This document shows, one piece after another, positions 1 to 4,615 of a stretch of DNA of 5,032 nucleotides (positions within the stretch are counted from its first letter, which is position 1; every line of letters begins with the position of its first letter). The translations under genes were made by a program, and so were the position numbers. A model generated the notes under the pieces. The model was not told the origin of the DNA, searched no databases, and was given only the letters and a program-made list of their open reading frames with translations. Source of the stretch: a virus. Lineage: Duplodnaviria > Heunggongvirae > Uroviricota > Caudoviricetes. The DNA lies in the IMG/VR virus record IMGVR_UViG_2698536335_000005, positions 1 through 5,032 of that record. One strand, 5' to 3'.

Positions 1-1629
1 GGTGCAGACTTTTTCCACTTCCTGTTGCGCCACTGGTTCAGGCTGTTTCGTTTCTGGCTCGTTTTGTAACGCATTTGGGCTGTTTTGTTCCGCTTTTTGG
101 TAGTTCCGTTCCGATTCATGCTGGTTCTGGTTTACAGAATCGCGGGTCTGGATCCCCTTAACCCATTTCGGATCATTCGGGTCGCTAATCCCTGCAACAA
201 ATTCTCCGCGAGAGGCAGCAAGCAACTTATCGGCGTCAGGCTGGCTGATATTGGCTGCCTGCATAATTTTGTTTACTTCGTCAGCGGTAACTTTTACCGG
301 CTCTGGTTGTGCGGTCGTGTCAGATGCACCAGTATTTTGTTGTGAACCTGAGTATGTACTGTTTTTGCGGGCGAAATATTCTTCTTTCGTGATTTCAGTA
401 GCCCCGGCAGCCAGTGCCTTATCCAGACCAGAAAGTTTGTTTGCGCGACCGTATTTTTCGCCATCCTTGTCGGTGAAGAGGAAGTAGAACGGCCCCTCAC
501 GCTCTACAGATGGTTCGACTTCCACTTTGCATTCGGTTTTTTCGTTGTCCGGAATTGCCGTTTCCACTGCATCAGTTTCTGGTACTGGCGACGAGAGAGT
601 ATCAGTTGCGCTCTGATTTGTTCCTTCATCTTCAAACACGCCCTTTGTAGTCAGGTATTCAGTAATGTATTTGTTCAGTGCCACAGGGTCTTTGTGAATG
701 TCGATCGGACGTTCACGGACAAGGCCAAAAATAGTCTGGCGGTCGTAGCGAAGGGCATCAGGCTGTTTGCGCATTGATGAGTTGTCGATAACTTCATTTT
801 TTGCCCAGCGATGGATGCTGCCGTCAATGTTTCCGGCATCCACATCACCAGGCCAGAGAGCGTAGGCCAGTTCGTCATCCAGTGTTTTCCATGTCTGCTT
901 GTATTCGCGATGAATGGCAGCAATGACCAGGCTGATTTTTCCTGTTGAATTTTCAGTGTGCTGTTGATTGACTCTGGCGCGGGCGAGATCAACAACAGAC
1001 GTGTATTTTCCGGTTTCCTTGCGTTCACCTTCGCGACGTTTTTTCCAGATGCGCATCTCTGCCTGAATTTCGGGCCATTTGGCACCAGGCTTACATTTAT
1101 GCTTAACCCACCCGATGGCATGCAGCTTAAGCTCCGGATACATGGCGTTAACTTCTGGCATTTTCATCAACGCTTCAACGATATGTCCGTTGAATGTTGC
1201 CATGTCTTCCTGCAACAATTCCTGTGCGCTAATAACCATATCAACGGTGATGTTTTCACATGTGTCGAACTTAACCATGAGAGCGTTCTGTACTTCAGGG
1301 GCCAGCTTGTCAAAAGTGACGTTCATCAGATCGGATTCAGTCTCAACCGGGACAAAAGAAGCAGAATCCTCATCCCAGCGGTTTTCCTGCATATATTCAG
1401 CATCCCATGAATCGAGGGCAGGGCGGGGTATGCCAGGTTTATCCTCGCAGATAATAAATTTATAAGCGCAGTCCTGAGCAGCCGGATAATGTTCCAGGAA
1501 TTGCCAGTGAAATTTTGCTCGAGCACGGCGTTCGTCGCCAGCTTCAATAGCTGTGGCTACAGCCACAGCGCCTTCTTCCCTTGTTGCCAGTTCGTCAGGA
1601 ATGGCGGCGCAAATAAAGACTTTACTCAT
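1..1629 (-). CDS. recE: RecE-like exodeoxyribonuclease VIII, N-terminal 543 codons; 3' end lies beyond the window start
   Basis: ATG at 1629..1627 (MSKVFICAAIPDELATREEG...) is preceded by GAGG 10 nt upstream and an in-frame TAA just upstream. The frame is open to position 1; I spot-checked it by hand at 1-60, 121-240, 301-360, 481-540, 601-660, 841-900, 1201-1260 and 1601-1629. The ORF track omits it, presumably because it has no stop in the window. The stretch PDADKLLAASRGEFVAGISDPNDPKWVKGIQTRD (about 121-240) matches my recollection of the E. coli RecE middle region, and an acidic Pro/Glu/Gln-rich linker (TAQPEPVKV, ETKQPEPVAQQEVEKV) fits RecE. Position at the distal end of the early-left operon is as expected for a recombination module. 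Confidence 0.75.
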   Translation of the reverse strand, partial: MSKVFICAAIPDELATREEGAVAVATAIEAGDERRARAKFHWQFLEHYPAAQDCAYKFIICEDKPGIPRPALDSWDAEYMQENRWDEDSASFVPVETESDLMNVTFDKLAPEVQNALMVKFDTCENITVDMVISAQELLQEDMATFNGHIVEALMKMPEVNAMYPELKLHAIGWVKHKCKPGAKWPEIQAEMRIWKKRREGERKETGKYTSVVDLARARVNQQHTENSTGKISLVIAAIHREYKQTWKTLDDELAYALWPGDVDAGNIDGSIHRWAKNEVIDNSSMRKQPDALRYDRQTIFGLVRERPIDIHKDPVALNKYITEYLTTKGVFEDEGTNQSATDTLSSPVPETDAVETAIPDNEKTECKVEVEPSVEREGPFYFLFTDKDGEKYGRANKLSGLDKALAAGATEITKEEYFARKNSTYSGSQQNTGASDTTAQPEPVKVTADEVNKIMQAANISQPDADKLLAASRGEFVAGISDPNDPKWVKGIQTRDSVNQNQHESERNYQKAEQNSPNALQNEPETKQPEPVAQQEVEKVCT

Positions 1630-1724
1630 TTTGTTTTAACCTCATGACAGATTTCAAGGTGAACGAATCCCTGCCATTGCTGGCATTTTTAATCCGTTGG
1701 TATGGTGTTAATATGGCTGGAGGG

Positions 1725-2098: not shown

Positions 2099-2276
2099 TA
2101 TCGCGTCCTCAACAATGAATTTTGTGATGCAGTGCCTGGTGCCTCCAGGTGACGTTAACCAGTTAACAATTAACGCCGGATTAGTTGATGCTCGTTACGC
2201 CCGTAAAATACCGCCTTACTGCTTTAACTGTTCCGCGTGCGCATAGCCGCATTCACCGCATCACAAAATTCACTTT

Positions 2277-2302
2277 AAAAAGGGCGGATATCCGTTTCCG
2301 CC
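2277..2302 (-). terminator. Rho-independent terminator (DicF 3' end), partial terminator inside the leftward operon
   Basis: On the minus strand a 6-bp GC-rich stem GGCGGA/TCCGCC (plus 2283-2288 and 2297-2302) with an 8-nt loop is followed directly by CUUUUU (plus 2277-2281 is AAAAA). There is no U-tract on the plus-strand side, so it is orientation-specific for leftward transcription. Confidence 0.6.
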
Positions 2303-2316
2303 GAATCACCAGAAAA
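2277..2316 (-). ncRNA. dicF: DicF-like small RNA (ftsZ-targeting family) embedded in the dicB operon
   Basis: Minus-strand RNA reads UUUUCUGGUGAUUCGGCGGAAACGGAUAUCCGCCCUUUUU. The 5' UUUCUGGUGA and the 3' CCGCCCUUUUU terminator match what I recall of E. coli DicF. No ORF is present, and the location (upstream of dicB, downstream of ydfC) is that of dicF. The 5' boundary is approximate because the RNA is processed from a longer transcript. Confidence 0.55.
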
Positions 2317-3548: not shown

Positions 3549-3730
3549 GCTGACCTCATTTCCCCTTAACGCCGGGGTAGCGGAACAAAAACCTGCTGCA
3601 TAGTTATTAAAGTTGAACCCTGCCGTCATGTTCTTACGCCTCGGGCTGGCTACTTAACCCCTGACCACTGCCTGGTAACTCGAAGTATTGCCCTGCATTC
3701 TGTGGGGCGGGGTGGGTTGGTATGAAAAGA

Positions 3731-3759
3731 AGGATACCCATAGGTATTTAAAAAGTAAA
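3731..3759 (-). promoter_or_regulatory. candidate sigma70 promoter for the leftward operon (pL/pdicB-like)
   Basis: On the minus strand: -35 TTTACT (plus 3754-3759), 17-nt spacer, -10 TATCCT (plus 3731-3736). The predicted start near 3723-3725 leaves a leader of roughly 95 to 175 nt depending on the ydfA start. Both flanking operator copies overlap the -35 side and the spacer/-10. Confidence 0.4.
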
Positions 3760-3771
3760 TACCCATGGGTA
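3735..3771. promoter_or_regulatory. OL-like operator pair: TACCCATAGGTA (3735-3746) and perfect palindrome TACCCATGGGTA (3760-3771)
   Basis: Two 12-bp dyad-symmetric sites with centres about 25 bp apart overlap the leftward promoter. The same motif recurs in the repressor/cro intergenic region. Confidence 0.55.
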
Positions 3772-3813
3772 AATTTTTGCGGTGTCTTAACTGGTGACTA
3801 GTTGTTTGGTGAG

Positions 3814-4233
3814 CTATGATGCGTTTTGTGCTTTCTTTTTACGGATTTCTTCGTAGATCATATTGTAATACTGTTTTTTCTCTTCAAGAGTTTTTAATAA
3901 TTTATCCGCTTCACTTTCTGGCAGTTCGTCTAAGAGATCTAAAAAAATACGTTGTCGTGGCGTTAGAACCCTTGTTTCATAACTGGAGGCTGTGTTCGTT
4001 GATGATGAAACGATACCATCCATCCATCCCCGGGGTAACCCAAAGGACTCTTCGATAATCTCCACCATATCATCAGCGATCCGTTTTTTTCCCTTTTTCC
4101 CCTCTGGGTACAACATTCTTGATACATAAGAAGGCTCGCGCCCGATCTTTCTGGCCACGTTAACCGCTTTACCATCGCATTTCTCATCACGAATTTTGAT
4201 GAGTTGCTGTCGTCTAAATTCATATTTGTCCAT
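3814..4233 (-). CDS. prophage immunity repressor, XRE/cI-type N-terminal HTH, 139 aa, no LexA-like peptidase domain
   Basis: ORF-track ORF MDKYEFRRQQLIKIRDEKCDGKAVNVARKIGREPSYVSRMLYPEG... with an HTH-like segment near residues 20-40. It is divergent from the cro-like gene and co-oriented with the leftward operon, which is the cI/DicA/RacR position. At 139 aa it is too short for an S24 autocleavage domain. No SD precedes the ATG, consistent with a leaderless transcript. Confidence 0.75.
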   Translation of the reverse strand: MDKYEFRRQQLIKIRDEKCDGKAVNVARKIGREPSYVSRMLYPEGKKGKKRIADDMVEIIEESFGLPRGWMDGIVSSSTNTASSYETRVLTPRQRIFLDLLDELPESEADKLLKTLEEKKQYYNMIYEEIRKKKAQNAS

Positions 4234-4304
4234 AGGTAAATAATAGATGCGATTACCGCAAGGTAAACAACCTGTGGGTATTGACTTTTGTTTACCTGTG
4301 GGTA
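4227..4304. promoter_or_regulatory. OR-like tripartite operator: TGTCCATAGGTA (4227-4238), AACCTGTGGGTA (4269-4280), TACCTGTGGGTA (4293-4304)
   Basis: Three copies of the OL motif (9-10 of 12 matches to TACCCATGGGTA) lie between the divergent repressor and cro-like genes. The 4227-4238 copy overlaps the repressor start codon. The other two flank and overlap the rightward -35 and -10. Confidence 0.5.
4240..4267 (-). promoter_or_regulatory. candidate pRM-like promoter producing a leaderless repressor mRNA
   Basis: On the minus strand: -35 TTTACC (plus 4262-4267), 16-nt spacer, -10 TATTAT (plus 4240-4245). The -10 ends 6 nt before the repressor ATG at 4233, so the predicted start falls at or next to the ATG, and no SD is present. 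Confidence 0.4.
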
Positions 4305-4308
4305 TTCT
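4282..4308 (+). promoter_or_regulatory. candidate pR-like promoter for the cro-like/ydaT operon
   Basis: -35 TTGACT at 4282-4287. The best -10 is TATTCT at 4303-4308 with a short 15-nt spacer, so the -10 assignment is uncertain. It lies between and over the two right-hand operator copies, about 25 nt upstream of the ydaS-like RBS. Confidence 0.35.
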
Positions 4309-4333
4309 TTGCTGTGTTTACTAAGGAGTAGCT

Positions 4334-4615
4334 ATGGAAGAATTAAGAATATTTCTCAATTCTCTTTCGTCAGATGAACAGCGTATGTTTGCATGCGAGT
4401 GTGGTACCAGCATCGGTTATCTAAGAAAGGCATTGAGTAAAGGTCAAGTGTTAGGGGCATCGTTATGTGTCCTTATTGAGCGAGCCAGTAATGGTGAAGT
4501 TACACGTCAGCAACTAAGGCCTTTTGATTGGATGAATATTTGGCCCGAGCTGGAAGATACCAAAACGTTAACACAACCACTTTCTAGGAGCTTGATTCAT
4601 GAAAATCAAGCATGA
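4334..4615 (+). CDS. ydaS: Cro-like HTH regulator, YdaS family, 93 aa
   Basis: ORF-track ORF MEELRIFLNSLSSDEQRMFACECGTSIGYLRKALSKGQVLGASLCVLIERASNGEVTRQQLRPFDWMNIWPELED... AAGGAG lies 5 nt upstream of the ATG. The motif IERASNGEVTRQQLRP...WPEL resembles the YdaS/Cro family as I recall it. It is divergent from the repressor, in the cro position. Confidence 0.75.
   Translation: MEELRIFLNSLSSDEQRMFACECGTSIGYLRKALSKGQVLGASLCVLIERASNGEVTRQQLRPFDWMNIWPELEDTKTLTQPLSRSLIHENQA

Follow-up and report, generated by a model that had tools for sequence, protein, structure and literature searches.

The window, by which we mean the whole 5,032-nucleotide stretch of E. coli prophage DNA that was analysed, encodes two divergent regulatory genes: a 139-aa repressor on the minus strand and a 93-aa Cro-like (YdaS-type) regulator on the plus strand, separated by a 100-bp gap that holds both of their promoters. 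The Cro-like gene is followed by ydaT (PF06254 match, E = 2.6e-9), and the ydaS/ydaT junction (4592-4609) contains an exact copy of TTGATT-N6-AATCAA, the YdaT site defined in earlier work (PMC9986795). On the other side of the repressor is a ydfA-ydfB-ydfC-dicB-exonuclease operon. Rfam gave no match to DicF at the gathering threshold; a shortened DicF-like element was found by alignment to Qin. Copies of a 12-bp dyad motif, TACC-N4-GGTA, lie at the leftward promoter of the dicB operon (PL) and between the repressor and the Cro-like gene. The features are as follows, with site matches given relative to this motif.

3731-3759, minus strand: predicted PL (dicB-operon promoter), with -35 TTTACT (3759..3754), a 17-bp spacer and -10 TATCCT (3736..3731)
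3735-3746: OL1, TACCCATAGGTA, an exact match in the PL spacer that gives the first two bases of the PL -10
3760-3771: OL2, TACCCATGGGTA, an exact match and perfect 12-bp palindrome immediately upstream of the PL -35
3814-4233, minus strand: open reading frame of the 139-aa repressor, phrog_5736 transcriptional regulator
4227-4238: start-codon copy, TGTCCATAGGTA, with two mismatches in eight arm positions, probably not an operator
4240-4267, minus strand: predicted repressor promoter (PRM-like) from the promoter scan, with -35 TTTACC (4267..4262), a 16-bp spacer and -10 TATTAT (4245..4240)
4254-4265: OR3 equivalent, TACCGCAAGGTA, an exact match lying across the -35 and spacer of the repressor promoter
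4269-4280: OR2 equivalent, AACCTGTGGGTA, with one arm mismatch, abutting the PR -35 hexamer
4281-4308, plus strand: predicted PR (cro/ydaT promoter) from the promoter scan, with -35 TTGACT (4281-4286), a 16-bp spacer, -10 TATTCT (4303-4308) and a predicted start near 4315
4293-4304: OR1 equivalent, TACCTGTGGGTA, an exact match in the PR spacer that gives the first two bases of the PR -10
4334-4615, plus strand: open reading frame of the 93-aa Cro-like (YdaS-type) regulator, with Shine-Dalgarno AAGGAG, a weak PF15943 match and phrog_35

Four exact copies of TACC-N4-GGTA occur in the window, where 0.03 would be expected, and none of 200 shuffles contained four or more. Within the 29 kb of source genome around the window there are no further exact copies. 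A chance origin of the copies was ruled out by the shuffles together with this 29-kb context. The preliminary description had counted five copies, two of them over the leftward promoter and the other three between the repressor gene and cro. We recover that number as four exact sites and one with a single mismatch, and the two-plus-three count is right because the fifth site (4269-4280) sits at a conserved position: a site with at most two arm mismatches is found there in 21 of 28 related loci. The consensus given previously was essentially right as well, and tTACC-YRYR-GGTAa is a sharper version of it. All three of the well-supported intergenic sites (OR1, OR2, and OR3) lie upstream of the repressor ATG, with OR2 and OR3 only 15 bp apart, centre to centre. 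OR2 reads TACCCACAGGTT in the orientation of the repressor, and its centre is 41.5 bp upstream of the predicted repressor mRNA start. A search by eye for a third OL site returned just a lone GGTA half-site (3719-3722), 24 bp from OL1, which is missing from 92%-identical relatives.

We compared 28 loci (168.7 kb) that encode the same repressor N-terminal domain. They contain 95 exact sites, versus 2.6 expected. The stretch 25-90 bp upstream of the repressor start codon accounts for 48 of them, a further 46 come downstream of the repressor gene or operon, and a single one falls elsewhere. Counted from the repressor ATG, nearly every locus has sites close to -72 (O1), -48 (O2), and -32 (O3). O1, at -72/-73, is exact in 24 of 26 loci, and O3, at -32/-33, in 22 of 27. 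At O2 (-47/-48) a degenerate arm, GGTT, recurs in 15 of 21. Most of the downstream sites are paired, 24-26 bp apart, and an OL-type pair is present in 24 of the 28 loci. The repressor N-terminal domain occurs at 45-96% identity in prophages and phages of hosts ranging from Escherichia to Mannheimia, Aeromonas, Xanthomonas, and Ferrovum. The operator layout holds in E. coli, Edwardsiella, Pantoea, Yersinia, Aeromonas, Ferrovum, and Oxalobacter, and also in the cultured phages mEp043, CharmingMan, and Mannheimia 587AP2 (domain 45% identical). Xanthomonas phage Rb1 has exact sites at other offsets, and three loci with a repressor domain merely 31-38% identical have no site.

PL was read from the sequence, with a predicted start near 3724. 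Its hexamers match 8 of 12 sigma-70 consensus positions, which is under the threshold of the promoter scan, so it was not called. A different assignment, with the -35 (TTTACC) inside OL2 and TAAATA as the -10, was dropped for TTTACT/TATCCT, the one layout of the two that relatives conserve and that parallels PR. In PL the order is site, -35, site, and -10, as it is in PR and in the OL regions of 24 related loci. In these relatives the six bases past OL2 have the consensus TTGACA, a conserved TTGACA also follows O2, and the TTG of the PR -35 next to O2 is conserved. The T at position 6 of the -10 beside OL1 is invariant (24 of 24 loci), and the corresponding PR position beside O1 is kept in 22 of 26. 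Hexamers and sites interleave alike at the leftward and rightward promoters. The lambda-like OL/OR logic proposed earlier for this region is supported by these comparisons: the motif tracks the repressor domain at fixed offsets and is interleaved with the hexamers of PL, PR, and the repressor promoter. For the last of these, the A of the repressor ATG comes only 7 nt past the -10 TATTAT, and the mRNA is therefore predicted to be leaderless. In 27 of 32 related loci a TAnnnT hexamer ends 5-7 nt before the repressor ATG, and most of these loci lack a Shine-Dalgarno sequence.

In the repressor, residues 1-75 form an N-terminal helix-turn-helix (HTH) domain, with the putative recognition helix at 34-40; residues 77-87 are a disordered linker, and residues 89-138 a helical C-terminal domain like that of DicA. 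It matches phrog_5736 with E = 6e-70; searches against Pfam and PDB sequences gave no significant match. An AF2 model (pLDDT 84.5) consists of an HTH domain, linker, and helical hairpin, and the fold of the N-terminal domain resembles XRE and C-protein HTH domains (TM about 0.7, normalised to the target). Residues 86-136 align with positions 81-131 of the NCBIfam DicA model at E = 1.9e-5, below the family cut-off, and BLASTP aligns the repressor with residues 84-129 of K-12 DicA (33% identity over 46 residues, E = 2e-7). The S24 peptidase domain (PF00717), present in many homologues of the N-terminal domain, was not found in the 139-aa protein, which ends in the DicA-like hairpin. Given a C-terminal domain that is DicA-like and not an S24 autopeptidase, induction would be expected to proceed via an antirepressor rather than by RecA-stimulated cleavage.

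The arms and core of the motif vary differently. A scan of IMG/VR gave only copies that are 99-100% identical, which serve as a sample of micro-variation rather than for comparison at depth. Among 79 near-identical copies 9 of 20 core positions are variable versus 2 of 40 arm positions (Fisher p = 4e-4). Across the related loci the core is YRYR in 25 of 26 O1 sites versus 1 of 27 O3 sites (p = 7e-13). The OR3 arm is mutated from GGTA to AGTA in 8 of the 79 near-identical loci, indicating that OR3 is less constrained than OR1.

The OL sites could also, or instead, act as an intrinsic terminator of the repressor transcript. On the minus strand OL1 and OL2 form a 16-bp hairpin followed by UCCUUCUUUU, 43 nt past the repressor stop codon; it is called by the terminator scan, and its RNA fold has an energy of -22.2 kcal/mol (z = -5.8). 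However, pairing is to some extent expected from any two near-palindromic sites, and in relatives the OL segment folds at -5 to -17 kcal/mol, with tails of as few as 1-4 T. What is conserved at OL is instead the arms and the interleaved -35 and -10 hexamers, and many relatives have other genes separating the repressor from OL. We regard a terminator role as unlikely, and rejected the hairpin as the primary function of these sites because its strength is not conserved; it may have a secondary terminator role in this lineage.

The preliminary description placed an operator copy over the repressor start codon and suggested autoregulation from it in the manner of lambda OR3. The site in question (4227-4238) does have a perfect left arm (TACC, in the orientation of the repressor) and a YRYR core (TATG), is located at the predicted transcription start of the repressor, and has a similar two-mismatch version in a Salmonella relative that is 85% identical. 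But its two arm mismatches make it one of 25 sites of equal quality in the window, about one per 200 bp, which is the chance level. Its right arm is coding sequence, made up of the first two codons and the initial base of the third (ATG GAC A). Its left arm is missing outside close E. coli and Salmonella relatives, being absent from mEp043 and all of loci L002-L027 in the comparison set, including the short-form Yersinia and Arsenophonus relatives. In addition, its centre is 27 bp from that of OR3, versus the conserved 24-25 bp. We did not retain it as an operator copy, and consider it improbable that it serves as a real fourth operator for negative autoregulation, whether instead of or alongside 4254-4265. 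Negative autoregulation is more likely to act at 4254-4265, the OR3 equivalent, which is kept in nearly all relatives and overlaps the -35 and spacer of the predicted repressor promoter.

It is very hard to credit that only the Cro-like/YdaS protein or a host factor binds the sites while the 139-aa protein binds elsewhere. A homologous 76-aa Cro adjoins the repressor, and co-occurs with the motif, in most related loci, but in seven loci that have the repressor domain, and the motif at the same offsets, none of the genes within 3 kb belongs to the Cro family. The sites also keep a fixed position with respect to the repressor ATG, and the breadth of hosts, from several gammaproteobacterial orders and some Betaproteobacteria, argues against a host factor. 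Across about 30 diverged loci the motif goes with the repressor DNA-binding domain, and the seven loci just mentioned show that it follows this domain and not Cro.

Judged from the sequence comparisons, the prophage's own 139-aa repressor very likely uses the five TACC-N4-GGTA sites as its operators. They are probably bound by the Cro-like protein as well, in competition with the repressor. The earlier proposal that one repressor governs both the dicB and the cro/ydaT operons via a shared operator has strong comparative evidence behind it, from which we infer the binding itself. Literature searches returned no binding, footprint, transcription start site, or reporter data for the repressor or any family member; queries with the motif strings, protein accessions, and mEp043 operators returned nothing relevant.

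We propose that a repressor dimer reads both 4-bp arms via its N-terminal HTH domain. The 4-bp core would not be read base by base and would tune affinity. Filling of OR1 (in the spacer and -10) and OR2 (abutting the -35) would shut off PR, silencing cro, ydaT, and the replication genes. OL1 and OL2, with a geometry like that of PR, would turn off the ydfA-ydfB-ydfC-dicB-exonuclease operon. OR2, about 41.5 bp upstream of the start of the putative leaderless transcript, is placed such that it could activate the repressor promoter; lambda CI activates PRM from a site at a comparable position. Since the OR3 core is not YRYR, this site, over the repressor promoter, is predicted to fill last and to cap repressor synthesis.

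Of 5,426 complete E. coli genomes, 822 (15%) carry the module, and their annotation gives the repressor no more than the label of hypothetical protein. The presumed effect of the module is to silence DicB, a cell-division inhibitor, together with the exonuclease/recombination genes and those for YdaS and YdaT. A lambda-like switch is of an ordinary kind, and the general picture of lambdoid regulation is unchanged; the operator of this one, however, seems not to have been described before. The operator is concrete (five sites, three promoters, and a base rule), and its predictions are directly testable. It would let the repressor family be annotated and its regulon predicted in many genera. The OR1 and OR3 cores, with their conserved difference, offer a clean natural case in which to study indirect readout.

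More tentatively, and with rather less than even confidence, these loci could represent a very widespread family of temperate-phage repressors in which the operator arms are all alike, strength is encoded in the core and the OR2 arm, and two induction modules are used. The range of such a family would be the Gammaproteobacteria and some Betaproteobacteria, and its DNA-binding domain is unannotated in Pfam. The strength code would lie in an uncontacted core, YRYR at OR1 and non-YRYR at OR3, and in a degenerate OR2 arm, amounting to indirect readout. The two induction modules, joined to the same domain, would be an S24 autopeptidase or a DicA-like antirepressor target. If the arms alone set specificity, prophages across genera and in 15% of complete E. 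coli genomes would be cross-immune to mEp043-like phages.

The arrangement resembles that of phage lambda: the repressor and cro genes diverge, one dyad operator occurs three times among the elements of PR and the repressor promoter, and more copies of it are found at PL. As in lambda, one site is centred at about -42 from a repressor transcript that is leaderless (predicted so here), and the promoter-proximal site overlaps the repressor promoter. The OR1-OR2 and OL1-OL2 centre spacings here are 24-25 bp, the same as in lambda. In contrast, the operator measures 12 bp, with a free 4-bp core between 4-bp arms, where that of lambda measures 17 bp; the OR2-OR3 spacing is 15 bp as against 23 in lambda, and there are just two detectable OL sites. 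The repressor DNA-binding domain is unrelated in sequence to that of lambda, the S24 autocleavage domain is lacking, and YdaT occupies the position of cII.

Control of two promoters by a short repressor has been described for DicA of the E. coli K-12 prophage Qin (PMC10448788) and for PaaR2/YdaS of CP-933P in E. coli O157:H7 (PMC8630535). Like DicA, the repressor is short (135-139 aa) and without a RecA cleavage site, it lies between a cro-like gene and a ydfA-ydfB-ydfC-dicF-dicB operon, and its C-terminal domain is homologous to that of DicA. Two parts of the operon were compared with Qin, PL to ydfA and ydfC to dicB; high similarity sets in about 40 bp before ydfA, and the mean column identity across ydfC-dicB is 89%. 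In contrast, the N-terminal DNA-binding domains fail to align, all operator and promoter DNA is unrelated (including the PL region, compared with the Qin dicA-ydfA spacer), and ydaT comes after the cro-like gene. Unlike in Qin, no homologue of the Rem antirepressor was found when K-12 Rem was compared by tblastn with the 29-kb region and with all fetched loci.

CP-933P likewise has a CI-like repressor and divergent genes for YdaS (Cro-like) and YdaT (CII-like) (PMC8630535, PMC9986795). In both systems operators are common to PR/PRM and a PL-like promoter, and the repressor gene is leaderless (as predicted here); the YdaT site noted above at the ydaS/ydaT junction is a further likeness. However, CP-933P uses 18-bp palindromic operators, whose half-site consensus is GTTTAGTAA, as opposed to TACC-N4-GGTA. 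The paaA2-parE2 toxin-antitoxin genes that follow PaaR2 have no counterpart after the repressor, and the searches run detected no similarity between PaaR2 and the 139-aa protein.

For the modelled DNA-binding domain, the closest solved fold is that of C.Esp1396I, a restriction-modification C protein (PDB 3clc), with an rmsd of 2.6-2.7 A over about 70 residues and a TM of about 0.7 normalised to the target. C proteins bind short palindromes with a flexible pyrimidine-purine core and use two adjacent sites about 15 bp apart, the distal activating and the proximal repressing. The resemblance in operator geometry may be treated as a lead. Unlike the repressor, C proteins lack a separate oligomerisation domain and act on a restriction-modification operon rather than on phage promoters, and no sequence similarity to them is detectable. 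The best Foldseek match to the whole model is Rep of Salmonella phage SPC32H (PDB 5d4z and 5d50; compare Gifsy-type short repressors), a weak match (E about 1e-3, TM 0.47, 16-22% identity). Both have an N-terminal HTH domain and a helical C-terminal domain, and it is an antirepressor, not cleavage, that controls SPC32H Rep.

No published analysis of the operators of the lambdoid phage mEp043, which stands here for related S24-type repressors too, was found in the literature. Its cI (228 aa) differs in carrying an S24 (LexA-type) C-terminal domain, an extra gene lies between cI and OL, and classical cII and N genes flank cI. The likeness is in the N-terminal domain, 76% identical to that of the repressor, in O1, O2, and O3 at -72, -47, and -32, in an OL pair 25 bp apart, and in a Cro of the same family. 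The N-terminal signature MDKYE...GWMDG and TACC-N4-GGTA at fixed offsets place the 139-aa repressor in the mEp043-type CI family (unnamed; phrog_5736).

Four exact copies of the sequence TACC-N4-GGTA (4-bp arms around a 4-bp core) occur in the window, and a fifth copy carries one arm mismatch. Shuffled sequence is expected to hold 0.03 exact sites, four were reached in 0 of 200 shuffles, and no other exact copies occur across 29 kb of source genome. On sequence grounds, we consider the motif a real feature whose function is well supported. The sites, very probably operators of the 139-aa repressor, and the surrounding genes are as follows.

Leftmost, minus strand: exonuclease gene, 5' part only
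Left of ydfC, minus strand: 124-aa ORF, dicB (1910-2098), and a DUF1482 gene
Left of the 139-aa ORF, minus strand: DUF1391/ydfA-like gene, then ydfB and ydfC
3735-3746: OL1, exact
3760-3771: OL2, exact
3814-4233, minus strand: 139-aa ORF (repressor), rightmost of the minus-strand genes
4254-4265: OR3, exact
4269-4280: OR2, one arm mismatch
4293-4304: OR1, exact
4334-4615, plus strand: YdaS/Cro-like gene, 93 aa
4599-5024, plus strand: YdaT gene

A lambdoid prophage of E. coli 2013C-4991, adjoining yccA, contains the window sequence at 100% identity. This match to the source genome (NZ_CP027355.1; the relevant part is window 1-1630) falls in two pieces and covers 5,059 source bases for 5,032 window bases, implying a 27-bp length difference or a repeat within the exonuclease gene. 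More broadly, 822 of 5,426 complete E. coli genomes carry the module, and their annotations list the repressor as a hypothetical protein.

No Pfam family was identified for the 139-aa protein, which matches a PHROG of transcriptional regulators and has 317 relatives by database search. Residues 1-75 (MDKYE...GWMDG) recur at 50-80% identity in two protein types: one is short (135-140 aa) and ends in the same helical C-terminus, and the other comprises 220-242-aa repressors bearing an S24/LexA peptidase domain. The AlphaFold model (pLDDT 84.5) has a helix-turn-helix domain (helices 3-18, 23-30, 34-40, and 54-63), a disordered linker (residues 77-87), and a helical hairpin (92-138); the C-terminus can be aligned to that of Qin DicA. 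Among solved structures, the nearest folds belong to XRE-type HTH proteins, in particular the controller proteins of restriction-modification systems. Over the whole chain the best match, a weak one, is to Rep of Salmonella phage SPC32H, which is controlled by an antirepressor.

We compared 29 genomic loci encoding relatives of the N-terminal domain, adding phages mEp043, CharmingMan, Mannheimia 587AP2, and Xanthomonas Rb1 and two closer relatives. Exact sites in 28 loci (168.7 kb) numbered 95 versus 2.6 expected: 48 lie 25-90 bp upstream of the repressor ATG, 46 downstream of the repressor gene or operon (mostly in pairs 24-26 bp apart), and only one elsewhere. Measured from the ATG, the sites keep constant offsets of about -72, -48, and -32, equivalent to OR1, OR2, and OR3 of the window. 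The pattern is kept in Aeromonas, Ferrovum, and Oxalobacter and, at 45% domain identity, in Mannheimia phage 587AP2; it is missing in three loci with domains just 31-38% identical. The motif tracks the repressor domain, as seven loci retain domain and sites with no Cro-family gene nearby. The relatives encoded by Klebsiella loci L005, L007, and L009-L011 are 233 aa long and seem to belong to the S24-carrying type. They share the DNA-binding domain, and two sites separated by 40 bp lie upstream. These loci lack an OR2-like site and a nearby Cro-family gene, and may employ this repressor and operator for something other than a switch.

Comparing loci shows invariant arms around a four-base core that varies. 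Among 79 nearly identical metagenomic copies, 9/20 core positions are polymorphic versus 2/40 arm positions (p = 4e-4). A YRYR core is present in 25/26 of the -72 sites, 19/21 of the -48 sites, about half of the OL sites, and 1/27 of the -32 sites (p = 7e-13 versus the -72 site). The right arm of the -48 site is systematically degenerate (GGTT in 15/21). From the core rule and this degenerate arm we infer a built-in affinity hierarchy, OR1 > OR2 > OR3. The OR3 arm is mutated from GGTA to AGTA (repressor orientation) at the equivalent of window position 4257 in 8/79 near-identical IMG/VR copies (L031-L110), and the PR -35 hexamer is altered in a few others; such changes may represent regulatory variants of this switch.

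Three promoters were predicted.

-35 TTGACT 4281-4286, 16-bp spacer, -10 TATTCT 4303-4308, plus strand: PR (rightward, cro/ydaT), promoter scan
-35 TTTACC 4267..4262, 16-bp spacer, -10 TATTAT 4245..4240, leftward: repressor promoter, promoter scan
-35 TTTACT 3759..3754, 17-bp spacer, -10 TATCCT 3736..3731, minus strand: PL (leftward, dicB operon), layout of relatives applied to the window

In relatives, a -35 TTG directly follows O2 and the -10 hexamer starts with the last TA of O1; likewise at OL, the consensus after OL2 is TTGACA, and the TAnnnT hexamer that begins inside OL1 has its T6 in 24/24 loci. OR1 and OL1 have their centers about 16.5 bp ahead of the predicted PR and PL starts, respectively, OR3 overlaps the -35 hexamer and spacer of the predicted repressor promoter, and the center of OR2 lies 41.5 bp upstream of where the repressor mRNA is predicted to start. 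This interleaving, with the fixed offsets in relatives, supports the lambda-like OL/OR logic proposed in the preliminary description. The repressor -10 ends 6 nt ahead of the ATG, and 27/32 loci have a TAnnnT hexamer ending 5-7 nt short of the ATG, in most cases with no Shine-Dalgarno sequence; a leaderless repressor mRNA is therefore predicted. The lambda cI and paaR2 mRNAs are reported to be leaderless (PMC8630535).

On the minus strand, OL1 and OL2 fold as a 16-bp hairpin with a T-rich run after it, possibly a secondary terminator in this lineage. The equivalent segment of relatives folds at only -5 to -17 kcal/mol, often with no T-run, so the conserved OL feature is the predicted protein-binding arms. 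An operator over the repressor start codon, also proposed earlier (4227-4238, TGTCCATAGGTA), is very unlikely and was taken as chance: it has two arm mismatches, a quality matched by 25 sites in the window, its right arm is the codons ATG GAC A, and its left arm, partly present in E. coli and Salmonella copies only, is absent from mEp043 and all 26 deeper loci, short-form relatives included.

The predicted PL leader (ccaccccgccccacagaatgcagggcaatacttcgagttacc..., 3640-3715, minus strand) is well conserved where the repressor is 85-92% identical. Farther along the operon, Rfam did not detect DicF at 2277-2315 (minus strand), where alignment to Qin reveals a shortened DicF-like element (UUUCUGGUGAUUCGGCGGAAACGGAUAUCCGCCCUUUUU) that keeps the 5' end and terminator and is missing about 17 nt of internal stem-loop. 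Between this element and dicB, Rfam matches the sRNA STnc100 below threshold (2121-2270, minus strand; 31 bits versus a gathering score of 47, E = 7e-5).

Three sources contribute to the window, which is a mosaic. The dicB operon, starting about 40 bp before ydfA, is close to that of Qin. The PL/OL region, repressor, and OR are unrelated to Qin; the junction lies at about 3585-3600, and the DNA leftward of it closely resembles Qin of K-12. The mEp043 type is seen in the repressor domain, Cro, and operators. An exact CP-933P YdaT site, TTGATT-N6-AATCAA (TTGATTCATGAAAATCAA), at 4592-4609 overlaps the 3' end of the cro-like gene together with the start codon of ydaT, a place equivalent to the footprinted OM site of CP-933P (PMC9986795). 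The Cro-like protein has 93 aa here versus 76 aa in most relatives; its extra C-terminal tail of about 17 residues (4562-4615) overlaps with the start of ydaT and resembles a joint formed by recombination of an mEp043-type cro with a CP-933P-type ydaT. A literature search found no published description of this operator or repressor. The switch follows the logic of lambda OL/OR and of two E. coli prophage switches already described, DicA/DicC/dicBp of Qin (PMC10448788) and PaaR2/YdaS/YdaT of CP-933P (PMC8630535, PMC9986795).
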